Source: a virus (taxonomy: Duplodnaviria; Heunggongvirae; Uroviricota; Caudoviricetes). From it: a DNA stretch of 41,547 bases. Both the position numbers and the translations under genes were made by a program. Of the stretch, positions 3,517 through 39,325 are shown piece after piece. Where the stretch lies: the IMG/VR virus record IMGVR_UViG_2529292882_000020, positions 1 through 41,547 of that record, one strand, 5' to 3'. The notes below the pieces were generated by a model that saw only the letters and a list, made by a program, of their open reading frames with translations, made no database searches and was not told where the DNA came from. Positions within the stretch are counted from its first letter, which is position 1; each line of letters starts with the position of its first letter.

Positions 3517-4043
3517 TTGCGTAACTCCGATAACTCGTTAAAGCGTTCCATAAACATCCCGTAGGCATGGCCCGGTGCCAGTGGAATCACGTTGAACATC
3601 TCTGTTGCCGGGATACCTTCCAGTACAGGCCAGAAAGAGCCATCATCAAGCCCGAGATCGCGGCGTTCGGTTGCCAGCATGATGAGATCGGCATATTTCA
3701 CGGGCGTACTCATAACTGGGGGTAACCCGTATTTCTCACGGATTACGGCGTCTATTTTTTCTTCCATTTGTTTATAGTCAGGAAGAAGGCGTTTCAGTGG
3801 TGCGGGAATGTCCTGACAATACGCTTCTGTTGCATCATGCATTAACGCTTCGAAAGCAAACTCCTGCGGTACCAGCTGGCTGCAAAGCACCGCATGTTGG
3901 GCGACGCTGTAGAAGTGTGAAAGATGCCCTGCAAAGCGACAGATATTTGAGAGGGAAACTGCGATATCGTTAATCACGATGTCGTCTTTATTTATCCTGT
4001 CATAATAAAAATGCTTCCCGGAAAAAGTTTTAATAAATGACAT
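3507..4043 (-). CDS. HD-domain phosphohydrolase (YfdR-like 5'-deoxynucleotidase)
   Basis: 178 aa from ATG at 4043 with GGAG 6 nt upstream; H..HD motif (ALMHDATEAY); the longer track ORF to 4070 lacks an RBS. Confidence 0.7.
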   Translation of the reverse strand: MSFIKTFSGKHFYYDRINKDDIVINDIAVSLSNICRFAGHLSHFYSVAQHAVLCSQLVPQEFAFEALMHDATEAYCQDIPAPLKRLLPDYKQMEEKIDAVIREKYGLPPVMSTPVKYADLIMLATERRDLGLDDGSFWPVLEGIPATEMFNVIPLAPGHAYGMFMERFNELSELRKCA

Positions 4044-8336: not shown

Positions 8337-9278
8337 ATGAGCACTAAATTAACCGGCTATGTATGGGATGGTTGCGCTGCATCAGGCATGAAATTATCCA
8401 GCGTGGCAATTATGGCCCGCCTGGCTGATTTCAGTAATGACGAAGGTGTGTGCTGGCCATCAATTGAAACCATTGCCCGCCAGATTGGCGCGGGGATGAG
8501 TACCGTCAGAACGGCTATCGCACGGCTGGAAGCAGAAGGCTGGTTAACGCGTAAGGCGCGTCGCCAGGGTAACCGCAATGCGTCGAATGTTTATCAGCTT
8601 AACGTTGCGAAGCTTCAGGCAGCGGCATTTTCTCAACTGTCAGATTCTGACCCGTCAAAATCTGACGCATCAAAATCTGACCCGTCAAAATTTGATGCGT
8701 CGAAATCTGGCAAAAAAGCGGGTTTTCACCCGTCAGAATCTGGCGGGGATCCGTCAGTAAAATCAAAACATGATCCGTCAGATAAAAAAACTTCTCGTCC
8801 GGACGCTTCGCAACCGGACACGCAGACGGATGAACAGGATTTTTTAACTCGCCATCCTGATGCGGTTGTATTCAGCCCTAAAAAGCGCCAGTGGGGGACG
8901 CAGGATGATTTGACCTGCGCACAGTGGCTCTGGAAAAAAATCATCGCCCTGTACGAGCAGGCTGCCGAATGTGACGGCGAGGTGGTTCGTCCCAAAGAAC
9001 CGAACTGGACAGCCTGGGCAAACGAAATTCGCCTGATGTGTGTGCAGGATGGTCGTACTCACAAACAAATCTGCGAGATGTACAGCCGCGTCAGCCGCGA
9101 TCCGTTCTGGTGCCGTAACGTGCTCAGCCCGTCGAAGCTGCGGGAAAAATGGGATGAGCTTTCCCTGCGCTTATCGCCGTCCGTCAGCACGTACACCGAA
9201 AAACGCGAAGACCCGTACTTCAAATCCAGTTACGACAACGTGGACTACAGCCAGATCCCGGCAGGATTCAGGGGGTGA
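8337..9278 (+). CDS. phage replication initiation protein (lambda O-like, N-terminal winged helix)
   Basis: 313 aa; iteron array embedded in the coding sequence as in lambda O. Confidence 0.6.
   Translation: MSTKLTGYVWDGCAASGMKLSSVAIMARLADFSNDEGVCWPSIETIARQIGAGMSTVRTAIARLEAEGWLTRKARRQGNRNASNVYQLNVAKLQAAAFSQLSDSDPSKSDASKSDPSKFDASKSGKKAGFHPSESGGDPSVKSKHDPSDKKTSRPDASQPDTQTDEQDFLTRHPDAVVFSPKKRQWGTQDDLTCAQWLWKKIIALYEQAAECDGEVVRPKEPNWTAWANEIRLMCVQDGRTHKQICEMYSRVSRDPFWCRNVLSPSKLREKWDELSLRLSPSVSTYTEKREDPYFKSSYDNVDYSQIPAGFRG
8641..8800. repeat. replication origin iterons (CCGTCA[A/G]AATCTG-type direct repeats, at least 5 copies) followed by an A-rich tract
   Basis: copies at about 8651, 8681, 8729, 8752, 8777; protein shows the matching SDSDPSKSDASKSDPSKFDASKS repeats. 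Confidence 0.55.
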
Positions 9279-33822: not shown

Positions 33823-34620
33823 ATGCATCGCATAGACACTAAAACCGCGCAGAAGGATAAGTTCGGCGCGGGTAAGAACGGTTTTACTCGTGGTAACCCC
33901 CAGACCGGCACACCTGCCACCGATCTGGATGATGACTACTTTGATATGTTGCAGGAAGAACTCTGCAGCGTGGTGGAGGCATCCGGTGCCAGCCTGGAGA
34001 AGGCGCGGCACGACCAGTTGCTTACCGCGCTTCGTGCGCTGCTGTTAAGCCGCAAGAATCCGTTTGGCGATATCAAATCGGATGGCACGGTGAAAACGGC
34101 TCTCGAAAACCTTGGTTTGGGAGAAGGCTCTGCATTACCGGTTGGGGTGCCTGTTCCGTGGCCTTCAGCCACTCCACCGACAGGCTGGCTGAAATGCAAT
34201 GGTGCGGCTTTTTCTGCTGAAGAATACCCGAAACTGGCAAAGGCTTACCCGACCAATAAATTGCCTGATTTACGCGGTGAGTTTATTCGTGGCTGGGATG
34301 ATTCTAGAGGGATTGATACGGGGCGTTCATTGCTAAGTGGTCAGGCTGCAACATTTATTCGTACAGCTTTGCAGGATTATTACGGTTACGATCTGAATAC
34401 TAATGTCAAAGTAGGTATCGCTTTTGCTACTGCTGATTCTGTTATAACTGTTGGAAACCCAGCTAATCCTAAAGCAGGAAATAATAGCGATTATGTTCCT
34501 GCATCAGCAGATAACTCCATAACGGGTACTCAAAGGACAGCGGAGGATAATTTTACCGGGGCATGGATATCAATGCGCCCTCGTAACCTTTCATTTAATT
34601 ACATCGTGAGGGCTGCATAA
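33823..34620 (+). CDS. tail fibre protein (constant N-terminus + currently expressed variable C-terminus)
   Basis: 265 aa; crossover site lies inside the gene at 34107-34126 (encodes ENLGLGE). Confidence 0.7.
34107..34126. repeat. left inversion crossover site (AAACCTTGGTTTGGGAGAAG)
   Basis: 19/20 inverted match to 36020-36039. Confidence 0.7.
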
Positions 34621-35222
34621 TGGATAATGCCGTATTAAATAGCGAGTTTATTGCCACGAAGGCGGGGGATATTACTGTCTATAATTATAATGGTGAAACA
34701 CGAGAATATATTTCCACATCAACTGAATATCTTGCTGTTGGTGTCGGTATTCCGGCATGTTCCTGTTTAGATGCACCAGGAACATATAAAGCTGGTTATG
34801 CCATCTGCCGCTCTGCGGATTTAAACTCATGGGAATATGTGCCAGACCATCGCGGAGAAATCGTCTATAACACCGAAACGGGAGACGCCAAAGAAATCAC
34901 AACTCCGGGTGATTACCCCGAAAATACAACCACTATCGCCCCATTAACGCCATACGATAAATGGGATGGTGAGAAATGGGTGACCGATACTGAGGCACAG
35001 CATCACGCCGCAGTAGACGCGGCAGAAGCACAGCGTCAGTCACTGATTGATACTGCAATGGCTTCCATTAGTCTGATTCAGCTGAAATTACAGGCCGGGC
35101 GGAAACTGACGCAGGCAGAAACAACCCGGCTTAACGCTGTGCTGGATTACATTGACGCGGTGACGGCAACAGATACCAGCATCGCGCCTGATGTCATCTG
35201 GCCTGAGCTGCCGGAGGCGTAG
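34620..35222 (+). CDS. tail fibre assembly chaperone (current orientation)
   Basis: 200 aa; conserved C-terminal ...DYIDAVTATDTSIAPDVIWPELPEA. Confidence 0.7.
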   Translation: MDNAVLNSEFIATKAGDITVYNYNGETREYISTSTEYLAVGVGIPACSCLDAPGTYKAGYAICRSADLNSWEYVPDHRGEIVYNTETGDAKEITTPGDYPENTTTIAPLTPYDKWDGEKWVTDTEAQHHAAVDAAEAQRQSLIDTAMASISLIQLKLQAGRKLTQAETTRLNAVLDYIDAVTATDTSIAPDVIWPELPEA

Positions 35223-35637
35223 GCCATTCAATATCGGGTGCTGTTGACGTATCAACACGCATCAGCAGCACACGGTATTTCTTCCATTCGGTGAGAATTG
35301 AAGTTTCTTCATCAGTTGCGATACCAGCATCAACAGCATCCTGACGCCAGGATATTTCACTGTCAGCTTTTGCACGAAATGTGGCTTTCATGTTTTCTGC
35401 ATCTGATATTTTCTGTTCTGGTGAAAGCGGCGGCTCATCAACCCATGCAAGAGCCCCTGAAACCATTCCCAGCATTTTTCCTGTTGGCTTATTTCCCCCA
35501 TTAAATCTGACAGCATCCTCATCGCTGATTTCAATACCATCCTGCGGCCATGTCCCCTCCTTGATATAACTTTCATATAGCGCTGCGTTGTAGATTGCAT
35601 TTTCGGACGGGCTGTAAACACTTTTAACTTTATTCAT
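35194..35637 (-). CDS. alternative tail fibre assembly chaperone (inverted orientation)
   Basis: 147 aa; C-terminal ...VDTSTAPDIEWPTPPAAQAR mirrors the plus-strand chaperone. Confidence 0.65.
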   Translation of the reverse strand: MNKVKSVYSPSENAIYNAALYESYIKEGTWPQDGIEISDEDAVRFNGGNKPTGKMLGMVSGALAWVDEPPLSPEQKISDAENMKATFRAKADSEISWRQDAVDAGIATDEETSILTEWKKYRVLLMRVDTSTAPDIEWPTPPAAQAR

Positions 35638-35641
35638 TCTG

Positions 35642-36039
35642 TTATCTCCCTTTCGCTATATAGCAAAGATTAAACCCACCGGCGCCTGACATACGGGCTG
35701 TAAAACCCGTTCTTGAAGTACCAGTTGAGTTAACTCCATAAGCAGGCATGGTTGTTGGAGAAAGCAGAGACTCCTGGATATCTGTCATTGTCAGTGTAAT
35801 TGATTCGACACGCGCGGGGAAAGGTAGCGGGAAAACAACATTCACCCCTGTCTGTCCAACGGGGAAACCGAAAATACCCCATTGTGTAATTACCCCATCC
35901 GGCCCCTTACTCCATCCAGATTTACTATTCGGCCAGTCTGCTGCTCCAGAGTACCCCGTTGTAAAACTACTCATATCTGGTACTTGCCCGGTATCCGTTC
36001 CGACGTGCCTCGTTGCTGCTTCTCCCAAACCAACGTTTA
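35642..36039 (-). CDS. alternative tail fibre variable C-terminal segment (needs inversion to acquire an N-terminus)
   Basis: minus-strand frame reads NVGLGE across the right crossover site, in register with ENLGLGE in the plus-strand fibre gene. Confidence 0.55.
36020..36039. repeat. right inversion crossover site (CTTCTCCCAAACCAACGTTT)
   Basis: inverted copy of the 34107-34126 site. Confidence 0.7.
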
Positions 36040-36099
36040 TGAAAATGCAGAAATAACGAGCAAATGGCATCATTCCTGCTTTTGTCAGAGGGATCCACT

Positions 36100-36654
36100 A
36101 TGCTTATTGGCTATGTACGCGTATCAACAAATGACCAGAACACCGATCTACAACGTAATGCGTTGAACTGTGCAGGATGTGAGCTGATTTTTGAAGACAA
36201 GATAAGCGGTACAAAGTCCGACAGACCAGGACTGAAAAAGCTGCTCAGGACATTATCGGCAGGTGACACGCTGGTGGTCTGGAAACTGGACCGACTGGGA
36301 CGCAGTATGCGGCATCTTGTCGTGCTGGTGGAGGAGTTGCGCGAACGAGGCATCAACTTTCGTAGTCTGACGGATTCAATTGATACCAGTACCCCAATGG
36401 GGCGCTTTTTCTTTCATGTGATGGGTGCCCTGGCTGAAATGGAGCGTGAACTGATTGTTGAACGAACAAAAGCTGGACTGGAAGCAGCTCGCGCACAGGG
36501 ACGAATTGGTGGACGTCGCCCCAAACTTACACCAGAACAATGGGAGCAGGCTGGACGATTAATTGCATCAGGCGTTCCTCGCCAGAAGGTGGCGATCATC
36601 TATGATGTTGGTATATCGACACTGTATAAGAAGTTTCCGGTCGGAGATAAATGA
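36100..36654 (+). CDS. pin: serine DNA invertase (Hin/Gin/Pin family)
   Basis: MLIGYVRVSTNDQNTDLQ... catalytic Ser in YVRVST; C-terminal HTH; GAGGGA RBS. Confidence 0.9.
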   Translation: MLIGYVRVSTNDQNTDLQRNALNCAGCELIFEDKISGTKSDRPGLKKLLRTLSAGDTLVVWKLDRLGRSMRHLVVLVEELRERGINFRSLTDSIDTSTPMGRFFFHVMGALAEMERELIVERTKAGLEAARAQGRIGGRRPKLTPEQWEQAGRLIASGVPRQKVAIIYDVGISTLYKKFPVGDK

Positions 36655-36714: not shown

Positions 36715-37584
<870 letters not shown>

Positions 37585-37674
37585 CTAAGCCTTTGAATTT
37601 ACATAGTACAAAAAAGATACTTTTCCTCATAATGTGAGCTAATTTTATGTTTCGTTTGATGATTGGACCGGTCT

Positions 37675-37700
37675 CGAAAACCGTAGGCACGTAGTATGCG
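37675..37700. repeat. cassette-boundary repeat, partial copy C (left arm only)
   Basis: CGAAAACCGTAGGCACGTAGTATGCG, about 22/26 match to the left half of copies A and B. Confidence 0.5.
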
Positions 37701-37891
37701 TTAATTTATGAACAAACTACTTGTCTGCTGTTTTTCTGTCATTAGTCGTATATAGAATAATTCTCTATGCCTAACAAAGCATCACCAGTGCTAGATTACG
37801 TTGTAGTCACTGTTTAAATATCCAGATAAAACATTTCCTTCTGGGTTGAATGAGTGATAGAGTTTCACCCATTAGACCCCTTGGAGGAATT

Positions 37892-39325
37892 ATGTCTGAA
37901 TTTGAAGTGTTGGCACAGCATCTGCTGAAGGAAGCCGAGGCGGAAGAAAAGCTGCGACAGGAAAATGATAAAAAGCTTATCGAGAAAGTGCTGGAAATCT
38001 ATGATCAGAAGTATGTGGCTGAATTACTGAGAAAAGTCGGAAAAAATGAGTGGAGCCGTGAAACCATCAACCGCTGGATTAATGGCAAGTGTTTACCAAA
38101 ATCGTTGACTTCAGTAGAAGAGTCTCTTCTGCGTAAGATGCTACCAGAACCACCTGCAAACCATCCGGAATATGCTTTCCGCTTCATTGACTTATTTGCT
38201 GGAATTGGAGGGATACGGAAAGGTTTTGAGGCCATTGGAGGCCAGTGTGTTTTTACCAGTGAATGGAATAAAGATGCTGTGCGTACATACAAGGCCAACT
38301 GGTTTAACGATGAACAGGTGCATAAATTCAATCTCGATATTCGGGAAGTCACGCTGAGTGATAAAACCGATGTATTGGAAACGGATGCTTATGCATATAT
38401 TGATGAGCATGTGCCGGATCATGATGTGCTTCTTGCGGGGTTCCCGTGCCAGCCATTTAGCCTTGCTGGTGTTAGTAAGAAAAACTCACTTGGTCGTGCG
38501 CATGGTTTTGAATGTGAAGCACAAGGAACACTTTTTTTTGACGTGGCACGTATTATACGAGCAAAAAAACCGGCAATTTTTGTGCTGGAAAATGTCAAAA
38601 ATCTGAAGAGCCATGATAAGGGTAAAACTTTCAAAGTCATTATGGAGACCCTTGACGAGCTGGGCTACGAAGTTGCCGATGCTGCAGAAATGGGAAAAAA
38701 CGATCCAAAGATTATCGATGGGAAGCATTTTTTGCCTCAGCATCGTGAACGCATTGTTCTGGTCGGATTTAGACGAGATCTGAATATTCACAAGGGGTTT
38801 ACCTTGCGTGATATCAGTCGTTTTTATCCGGAACACCGCCCATCATTTGGTGAATTGCTGGAGCCTGTAGTCGACAGTAAATATATACTTACGCCAAAAC
38901 TATGGGAGTACCTTTATAACTACGCCAAAAAGCATGCAGCCAAGGGGAATGGTTTTGGCTTTGGGTTGGTCAATCCTGAGAATAAGGAAAGCATTGCACG
39001 CACACTTTCTGCCAGATATCACAAAGACGGATCAGAAATTCTTATTGATCGTGGTTGGGATATGGCAACGGGAGAGGCTGACTTTATGAATGAGAGTAAC
39101 CAGGCTCGTCGACCACGCAGGCTGACTCCCCGAGAGTGCGCACGCCTTATGGGGTTTGAAAAACCTGGAGGGAAACCATTCCGTATTCCGGTTTCAGATA
39201 CTCAGTCATATCGGCAGTTCGGTAACTCCGTTGTGGTGCCAGTATTTGAAGCCGTTGCCAGACTTCTGGAACCCTATATCCTCAAAGCTGTTTCTGCTGA
39301 TGCTGGTAAGACTGGGCAGCCTTGA
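37892..39325 (+). CDS. DNA cytosine-5 methyltransferase, EcoRII/Dcm type (CCWGG predicted)
   Basis: 477 aa from ATG 37892 (GGAGG RBS); [45 protein letters not shown] motifs. Confidence 0.85.

Follow-up and report, generated by a model that had tools for sequence, protein, structure and literature searches.

The fiber locus in the window (the whole analyzed stretch of 41,547 nucleotides of viral DNA) represents, with very high probability, a functional Pin/P-segment switch of the Din class (Gin/Cin/Pin/Hin), carried by an intact, thrW-integrated, e14-like E. coli myovirus prophage with a Mu-type baseplate. An earlier note on this DNA had assigned the locus to the Mu G-segment/e14 P-region type. 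This assignment agrees with the Din-type crossover sites and with a Gin/Pin-type invertase in which both the catalytic and the Fis-contact residues are intact.

An invertible segment exchanges the fiber tip together with its chaperone

The fiber gene and the two alternative cassettes that can complete it are arranged as follows:

33823-34112, plus strand: constant 5' part of the fiber gene (equivalent of Mu Sc), forming the start of the ORF 33823-34620.
34113-36032, no strand assigned: invertible P-type segment of 1920 bp, the exact reverse complement of which reproduces locus L006.
34126-34620, plus strand: variable fiber C-terminus A, expressed in the present orientation, with 164 residues past GLGE and a tail-collar domain.
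34620-35222, plus strand: assembly chaperone A, 200 aa, TfaE-like; Caudo_TAP (Pfam), E = 2.3e-32.
35194-35637, minus strand: assembly chaperone B, 147 aa, silent at present; Caudo_TAP (Pfam), E = 1.1e-32.
35642-36019, minus strand: variable fiber C-terminus B, a silent cassette, with 125 residues past GLGE and a gp53-like C-terminal domain.

Start codon and ribosome-binding site come from the constant part, as do the N-terminal ~97-101 residues common to both orientations, and in both forms this part matches the N-terminal portions of PHROG tail-fiber families. Positions 33823-34345 share 92.5% nucleotide identity with stfE of K-12 e14. In the present orientation, the gene encodes a 265-aa fiber carrying the Pfam domain Collar (PF07484; residues 108-155, E = 1.9e-15), which is also matched by the PHROG tail-collar fiber families. 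The stop codon of this fiber and the start codon of chaperone A overlap (TAATG); chaperone A matches phrog_105 (tail fiber assembly, E = 1.3e-98), and its region is 88.9% identical to K-12 tfaE on nucleotide level. On the opposite strand, C-terminus B contains the domain Gp53-like_C (PF21882, E = 2.1e-10), and chaperone B matches phrog_188 (E = 2.5e-50). The ORFs of both tips and both chaperones are all intact and carry fiber or chaperone domains. A scan for sigma-70-like promoters inside the segment that could serve the silent cassette or pin returned 2 matches compared with 4.7 expected by chance, none of them suitably placed.

In silico inversion of 34113-36032 kept the reading frame, with no stop codon or frameshift in either form, and converted the 265-aa Collar fiber with its 200-aa chaperone into a 226-aa gp53-like fiber with a 147-aa chaperone, the start of chaperone B then lying 4 nt past the stop codon of fiber form B. 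In their shared frame, both repeat arms read GLGE, within ENLGLGE on the plus strand and NVGLGE on the minus strand. The earlier proposal that the repeats lie in register within the fiber gene and the minus-strand C-terminus is borne out by this, as is the exchange of the fiber C-terminus along with an assembly chaperone, Caudo_TAP being present in both chaperones. The C-terminal sizes given at that time (165 versus about 125 residues) correspond to the 164 and 125 residues counted after GLGE.

The repeat arms are embedded in Din-type crossover sites

A search of the entire window for inverted pairs with a length of 20 nt or more yielded three in all. One of these is the repeat of the fiber locus (34107-34126 and 36019-36038; 20 nt, arms 95% complementary). 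The 20-bp repeat of the earlier note is thus present with the left arm at 34107-34126 as described, while the right arm had been placed at 36020-36039 and is located at 36019-36038. Its interpretation as the switch site stands as well, but the length has to be revised, the functional sites measuring 26 bp and not 20. Both 20-nt arms are embedded in these 26-bp sites, which fit the crossover consensus of Din invertases:

34100-34125, plus strand: left crossover site, pixL, CTCTCGAAAACC-TT-GGTTTGGGAGAA, with the central TT at 34112-34113.
36020-36045, plus strand: right crossover site, pixR, TTCTCCCAAACC-AA-CGTTTATGAAAA, with the central AA at 36032-36033.

The window hosts 2 sites matching the Din consensus, compared with 0 in 100 dinucleotide-preserving shuffles. 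Both are imperfectly palindromic, placed in inverted orientation, have matching central dinucleotides and align with gix, cix and the sites of K-12 e14. With the latter they agree in every base (pixL with L012:2778-2803, pixR with L012:4605-4630). The repeat quoted in the literature for the e14 P segment, TTGGTTTGGGAGAAGG (PMC12529663), was found in the window, too. Neither a regular expression tolerating up to five substitutions nor a core-only pattern detected a third crossover site. A multi-inversion shufflon was rejected, as both searches gave two sites only.

An intact invertase gene adjoins the segment

The recombinase and its candidate enhancer are located next to pixR:

36100-36654, plus strand: pin, Din-family serine DNA invertase, 184 aa; Pfam Resolvase and HTH_7.
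36118-36189, plus strand: presumed Fis-dependent recombinational enhancer in the 5' end of pin, assigned by homology to P1 cin.

With pixR ending at 36045, the invertase gene is found directly outside the right repeat, as the first reading of the locus had stated. Its start is likely the codon at 36100 (MLIGYVRVS, as annotated in relatives) and not the upstream ATG at 36064. A simple scan between pixR and the start codon revealed no sigma-70-like promoter for pin. Both domains of the protein were recognized by Pfam (Resolvase, E = 1.3e-51; HTH_7, E = 3.9e-13), and comparison with the PDB matched the Gin structures 3UJ3 and 4M6F (E = 1e-95). The sequence identity amounts to 96% with K-12 PinE, 82% with Cin and 79% with Mu Gin, and Pin of strain MS 69-1 is 99% identical. 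The catalytic S9 is present within MLIGYVRVS, and R7, D64, R65, and R68 are invariant in an alignment with Gin, Cin, and PinE. In Hin, Q151, R154, and L155 contact Fis/enhancer, along with the basic residues K47, R48, and K51 (PMC3798978). The counterparts of these Fis-contact and helix-B residues in Pin are the invariant columns Q150, R153, L154, and K46 as well as K47 and R50, both basic.

The candidate enhancer span aligns gap-free with the span annotated as enhancer in P1 cin (nt 19-90), sharing 95.8% identity with K-12 pinE, 79% with P1 cin and 75% with Mu gin. It includes the Fis-consensus-like 15-mer GTGCAGGATGTGAGC at 36170-36184, which is kept in all four invertase genes. A strict degenerate Fis pattern applied to this span matched the downstream site and not the upstream one. 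As just one of the two expected sites was recovered in this way, the enhancer was assigned from its homology to the one annotated in P1. By analogy, inversion would be expected to depend on Fis and the enhancer.

Din invertases are generally interchangeable, and the flipping might mostly be performed by a host invertase acting in trans (PinQ-/PinR-like or the Din enzyme of another prophage), leaving only a minor part to the adjacent pin. PinQ and similar enzymes are able to act in trans on the same sites, so that the adjacent pin need not be the sole or main catalyst. In K-12, plasmid-expressed PinQ took the inversion of the e14 P segment to 88%, compared with 49% for PinE (PMC12529663), and related places are frequent among E. 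coli genomes, which contain 2 of them in the median and up to 11. We nevertheless consider this scenario unlikely. The adjacent gene is an intact pin with 96% identity to the active PinE; it carries the putative enhancer span in cis, and a K-12 pinE mutant was reported as locked in one orientation (PMC12529663). The main catalyst is presumably the adjacent pin.

The switch resides in an apparently complete relative of e14

The window opens with proA, tRNA-Thr(CGU), and an integrase. A start at icd as in e14 had been our first guess and was rejected, since proA and thrW were found instead. The element does not reside at icd, the position of e14 in K-12, which is flanked by an icd fragment. Judged by its sequence, it is an intact relative of e14 with the classical P-segment/Pin system and partly different receptor cassettes.

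The e14 P segment, whose sites are identical to those of the window, is reported to protect the host, with its product StfE2 blocking T2 adsorption (PMC12529663). A switch that benefits the lysogen and not the virion, one orientation yielding a fiber-derived protein that blocks phages such as T2, is an explanation to be weighed. The product of the flipped form shares the architecture of StfE2, in which a gp53-like C-terminus follows an StfE-like N-terminus. However, the gp53-like cassette has no DNA-level alignment to K-12 stfP, no sigma-70-like promoter reading into the fiber gene was found, and promoter-like sites in the region were not above chance. In addition, the prophage looks complete, comprising terminase, capsid, sheath, tape measure, baseplate, and lysis genes, which makes a role in the virion the simple reading. 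We judge a benefit to the lysogen in place of the virion to be quite improbable. Decidedly improbable, too, is a dual use, in which the lysogen would produce the gp53-like fiber form and gain from it a reversible shield against T-even phages at the level of the population, so that the switch would serve both virion host range and defense.

Both orientations occur in nature

Whether inverted molecules occur at all, a point on which the earlier note had made its proposal depend, is answered among isolates, where the same prophage allele was found in both orientations. Locus L006, from another E. coli isolate, equals the in silico flipped window over 12,681 nt except for one SNP, located 4.6 kb upstream, and shows no mismatch in or near the segment. 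The same SNP is present in L009, which is oriented as the window. Contig JH768575.1 of E. coli B799 (GCA_000261385.1) shows full identity with the window across 12.8 kb. Comparison with the flipped allele places the crossover within 34112-34126, and the exact flipped hybrid fiber of 226 aa (P0016) is present in public data. In sister loci of the strains MS 69-1 and SX12, both orientations were detected, each within one assembly. The only difference between the paired copies is that a stretch of 1799 or 1889 bp between these same sites is exactly reverse-complemented. One of the sister loci with both orientations has identical 26-bp sites, the other a single-base difference. Among complete E. 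coli genomes (at least 80% coverage), 7 fit the arrangement of the window and 15 the flipped one. In the phage collection, the segment lacked a close relative along its full length; the best match covered 50%. From comparison across isolates and sister loci we conclude that the segment inverts between the two sites, with the breakpoints inside the sites. For the e14 P segment, inversion in culture has been demonstrated experimentally (PMC4272514; PMC12529663).

It could be argued that the segment is a fossil, in which sites and gene persist, inversion has ceased and the orientation differences among isolates are old. In favor of this, e14 of K-12 is itself a decayed prophage with a fiber gene annotated as pseudogene. 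This explanation is very improbable. Apart from a private SNP that they share, L006 and L009 match the window completely over 12.7 kb, and yet their orientations are opposite. The flip therefore postdates nearly all point mutations in this region. Furthermore, both orientations are found inside single assemblies of the sister loci, and all six parts of the switch are intact. An origin of the inverted repeat as a side effect of the fiber motif GLGE being encoded on both strands, and not as a recombination site, has practically no likelihood, for although the repeat coincides with a conserved peptide motif common to many fiber genes, the match extends into outer half-sites free of coding constraint and into a 26-bp Din consensus with a chance expectation of 0, the sites agree fully with those of K-12 e14, and the breakpoints of natural rearrangements sit exactly at the repeat. 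On the basis of the shuffles and these natural breakpoints, a chance match was rejected together with the coding motif as origin of the repeat.

Proposed mechanism

For the Pin-driven switch, we propose the following course of events. The fiber gene would be transcribed from the late operon upstream, with its first ~100 codons outside the segment. Pin dimers would bind the two inverted 26-bp pix sites and, in analogy with Hin and Gin, assemble with the Fis-bound enhancer in the 5' end of pin. Pin would then cut at the central TT/AA, half of the complex would turn by 180 degrees, and religation would leave 34113-36032 inverted. Orientation 1 is predicted to yield the 265-aa collar-type fiber with the 200-aa chaperone, orientation 2 the 226-aa gp53-like fiber with the 147-aa chaperone. 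The tips represent two distinct domain families (Collar versus gp53-like_C), making different specificities likely, and presumably they bind different receptors. With two fiber/chaperone outcomes, a lysogen population would release particles of two receptor specificities, amounting to bet-hedging on host range. The rate of flipping in the source strain is likewise something that we infer.

Significance

Knowledge of the Pin/P-segment switch dates back to 1985, and the locus is a real but ordinary working copy of this type, adding little new biology. The exact proteins of the locus are already deposited in public databases with sensible annotation. The main use of the finding lies in the quality control of annotation and assembly. 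The minus-strand ORF of 143 aa labeled as "gp53-like" is a silent cassette and not a gene, differences in orientation among assemblies of one strain are programmed and no errors, and mixed orientation can produce spurious extra contigs or "plasmids". As the prophage is apparently complete, its copy of the switch offers a cleaner system for studying fiber recognition than the decayed e14.

Comparison with known invertible systems

The closest counterpart is the P segment of K-12 e14 with PinE (Plasterk and van de Putte 1985; Mehta et al. 2004; via PMC4272514 and PMC12529663). Both 26-bp sites are identical, the invertase is identical by 96% and the presumed enhancer span by 95.8%, and the gene order is the same (constant fiber part, tip A, and tfa; tfa and tip B on the opposite strand; pin). 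The convergent 29-bp overlap of the two tfa genes and the baseplate neighbors YmfQ/gp48 and gp47 are also found in both elements. In contrast, the window holds a full-length prophage of ~40 kb at thrW-proA, whereas e14 is a 15-kb remnant at icd. The segment measures 1920 bp compared with 1797 bp in e14, and the form A tip (34346-34571) as well as the entire B cassette (35257-36012) gave no blastn alignment to K-12. The fiber gene is intact in the window and annotated as a pseudogene in K-12. Downstream of pin, the switch adjoins other defense cargo, a GIY-YIG protein and an EcoRII-type restriction-modification system, while mcrA is found at this position in e14.

With the C segment of P1 and Cin, the locus shares the site class, the TT/AA core and an invertase of 82% identity. 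The annotation of P1 places an enhancer within cin, at its 5' end. However, cin is found at the opposite end of the segment, pointing toward it, and the P1 segment (4.2 kb) and fiber (about 1000 aa) are larger. The G segment of Mu with Gin shows the same layout of a constant Sc, two Sv plus U cassettes on opposite strands and an invertase directly outside the right site. Its 26-bp sites have the core AAACC-NN-GGTTT in common with those of the window, its invertase is 79% identical, and homologues of gp45-48 from its baseplate type are encoded in the window. Mu differs by a segment of 3 kb, fibers of about 500 aa and a core dinucleotide of TC/GA instead of TT/AA, and its DNA similarity to the window is confined to the invertase gene.

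Hin and the H segment of Salmonella enterica presumably represent the same subclass as Pin, that of Fis/enhancer-dependent serine invertases with 26-bp sites (PMC3798978), and the Fis-contact and helix-B residues of Hin are conserved in the Pin of the window. Unlike Pin, Hin inverts a promoter controlling flagellin genes and no coding cassette, and hin lies inside its own segment. Finally, in the fiber shufflons (Min of p15B; the three-repeat switch of a P2-like prophage, PMC4272514), a Din-type invertase swaps fiber C-termini as well. Those systems operate with at least three sites and more than two fiber variants, whereas the window contains two sites and two variants.

Architecture of the invertible tail-fibre segment

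We consider it highly probable that Pin, presumably enhanced by Fis, inverts the segment 34113-36032 conservatively and thereby alternates two fibre tips together with their cognate chaperones, so that induced particles would carry either one of two receptor specificities. The elements of this switch are located in the window as follows.

Features of the switch region
33823-34620, plus strand: tail-fibre gene, 265 aa, with a phage tail-collar domain at residues 108-155
34100-34125: left crossover site, CTCTCGAAAACC-TT-GGTTTGGGAGAA
34620-35222, plus strand: Caudo_TAP chaperone, 200 aa, its start overlapping the fibre stop codon
35194-35637, minus strand: second Caudo_TAP chaperone, 147 aa
35642 up to the right site, minus strand: fibre C-terminal cassette with a gp53-like domain
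36020-36045: right crossover site, TTCTCCCAAACC-AA-CGTTTATGAAAA
36100-36654, plus strand: pin, 184 aa, with Resolvase and HTH_7 domains

The underlying inverted repeat (20 nt, 95% complementary) has its arms at 34107-34126 and 36019-36038; the earlier note had the left arm right and set the right arm one base off, at 36020-36039. Across the entire window, a search with a 14-nt seed detected three inverted pairs of 20 nt or longer and no more, this repeat among them. It is the central part of a pair of 26-bp sites fitting the crossover consensus of Din invertases, a consensus matched twice in the window vs not once in 100 dinucleotide-preserving shuffles. The site centres, TT and AA, are complementary as predicted for inverted orientation. 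Searches allowing up to five substitutions or using a core-only pattern revealed no third crossover site; a shufflon was therefore rejected in favor of a simple two-state switch.

The two arms of the repeat share one reading frame, in which each specifies GLGE. Reverse complementation of 34113-36032 in silico left both 26-bp sites unchanged and fused approximately 100 constant codons to the gp53-like cassette, resulting in a 226-aa fibre with the 147-aa chaperone gene beginning 4 nt past its stop. Counted after GLGE, the alternative tips comprise 164 and 125 residues, essentially the 165 versus about 125 initially proposed. The minus-strand 143-aa ORF at 35642-36073, publicly annotated as an independent 'gp53-like domain-containing protein', has its start codon beyond the right site and outside the invertible segment; it is best taken as the silent cassette extended across that site and probably does not constitute a separate gene. 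A simple scan of the switch region showed no excess of sigma-70-like promoters, in keeping with expression driven from the late operon upstream, where the baseplate genes are tightly packed.

The chaperone genes are convergent, and their 3' ends share 29 bp (35194-35222); an overlap of this same length also occurs in K-12 e14 (3863-3891 of locus L012) and in E. coli MS 69-1. The C-terminal peptides of the two chaperones, PDVIWPELPEA and PDIEWPTPPAA, are related.

Invertase and putative enhancer

Pin shares 99% identity with Pin of strain MS 69-1, 96% with K-12 PinE, 82% with P1 Cin, and 79% with Mu Gin, and it matches Gin crystal structures with E = 1e-95. It retains the nucleophile Ser9 plus R7, D64, R65, and R68. 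In Hin, the residues defining Fis/enhancer-dependent invertases are Q151, R154, L155, and basic residues at 47, 48, and 51 (PMC3798978); the alignment shows them conserved in Pin as Q150, R153, L154, K46, K47, and R50.

An alignment of the first 121 nt of pin with pinE, gin, and cin is ungapped, and the P1 enhancer, annotated at cin nt 19-90, has its counterpart at 36118-36189 (95.8% identity to pinE, 79% to cin, 75% to gin). A Fis-consensus 15-mer at 36170-36184 is common to all four genes. Since no second Fis site within the enhancer span met the strict pattern, the Fis-dependent enhancer in the 5' part of pin is a putative one, proposed by homology. Inversion of the e14 segment is driven by PinE as well as by the Qin-prophage enzyme PinQ (PMC12529663), making a trans-acting invertase plausible as a contributor here; that such an enzyme acts as the main catalyst is, in our judgment, unlikely.

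Prophage setting

The segment resides in a prophage encoding an integrase beside proA-thrW, a CI-like repressor, terminase, HK97-type capsid, sheath, tape measure, Mu-type baseplate, and lysis genes.

Prophage boundary and post-pin cargo
1-2622: left prophage boundary with proA, tRNA-Thr(CGU) at 1369-1444 and integrase at 1459-2622
36715-37539, minus strand: LEM-3-like GIY-YIG protein, directly after pin
37850-39325, plus strand: Dcm-type C5 cytosine methyltransferase with a DNA_meth_N domain
39360-40574, minus strand: EcoRII-type endonuclease

Numerous E. coli genomes share the proA/tRNA-Thr/integrase arrangement. Near the right end (40575-41547), a search with a 14-nt seed detected no direct repeat of the tRNA end measuring 20 nt or more; the right attachment site thus either falls short of this length or is located past the edge of the window. 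Pfam gave no match for the last ORF (41077-41547). Across the accessory block 36715-40574, standing where K-12 e14 has mcrA, the GC content drops to about 41-47%.

Elsewhere, six iteron-like repeat copies (TCAAAATCTGAC-like, 15-bp spacing) at 8625-8747 lie inside a 313-aa HTH_36 gene (8337-9278) and probably mark the origin from which the prophage replicates, embedded in the initiator gene as in lambda O. A 39-bp unit is exactly duplicated in tandem at 12099-12176, between a KilA-N gene and a DUF968/HNH gene. A 248-aa ORF on the minus strand (13415-14161), without Pfam match, occupies a low-GC patch (38%) flanked by the DUF968 gene and the lysis genes and may be a moron (accessory gene).

A function of the switch in host defence, as claimed for StfE2 of e14, is conceivable yet quite improbable: nothing in the window supports it, the prophage appears complete, and the cassette of form B (gp53-like tip plus 147-aa chaperone) is unlike that of K-12.

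Both orientations in one prophage lineage

The predicted flipped hybrid protein is present verbatim in public data (226 aa, two E. coli contigs). The DNA encoding it was fetched and compared with the window base by base. E. coli B799 (JH768575.1) is identical to the window across 12,798 nt. GCA_012389615.2 is oriented like the window and departs from it by one SNP; that SNP, 4.6 kb upstream, is also the sole difference between GCA_012699905.1 and the in-silico flipped window across 12,681 nt. Both orientations therefore occur in one prophage lineage, supporting the invertible segment postulated in the earlier note, and the flip postdates almost all point mutations in the compared DNA. A single base beside the core (34111) distinguishes the two arms, and the parental base is kept on each side in the flipped locus, placing the crossover between 34112 and 34126, in agreement with cleavage at the central TT.

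In E. coli MS 69-1 and SX12, the homologous region is present twice in each assembly, the paired copies being identical outside a stretch of 1799 bp and 1889 bp, respectively, that lies between the same bounding sites and is exactly reverse-complemented in one copy relative to the other. One copy each, carrying the prophage end, lies on a record deposited as a plasmid (NZ_CP146678.1, 64 kb, MS 69-1; NZ_CP142787.1, 55.6 kb, SX12). Genes on these records recur in the corresponding position of the same-strain chromosome record (dusA in SX12), from which we infer that the records are alternative-haplotype contigs; they look like assembly artefacts from mixed orientation in the sequenced culture, not true plasmids. 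Among complete E. coli genomes at a coverage of at least 80%, seven are arranged like the window and 15 like its flipped form.

That the switch is a locked fossil is very improbable, being contradicted by the flipped locus with its one SNP and by the two strains holding both orientations. A repeat arising by chance or as a coding-motif by-product is refuted by the empty shuffles and by natural inversions bounded by these sites.

Comparison with e14, Mu, and P1

The locus belongs to the Din family and represents the known e14-type Pin/P segment; the allele is new, and the prophage carrying it is intact. K-12 e14 has its two sites at the same positions, with both 26-bp sequences identical, and the literature repeat of its 1797-bp P segment, TTGGTTTGGGAGAAGG (PMC12529663), also occurs in the window. 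Inversion of the e14 segment is experimentally established, both forms coexisting in MG1655-derived cultures (PMC4272514). The main value of our findings lies in annotation and assembly interpretation; moreover, tests of what the two fibre forms do would find a cleaner model in the intact-prophage copy than in e14. Unlike e14, the window element is a full prophage, its segment measures 1920 bp, and neither the tip of form A (34346-34571), the present orientation, nor the entire B cassette (35257-36012) is alignable to K-12 at the DNA level. Its post-pin cargo consists of the GIY-YIG protein and an EcoRII-type restriction-modification pair, in contrast to mcrA in e14. Compared with Mu G and P1 C, logic and enzyme are the same, whereas segment and fibres are much shorter in the window.
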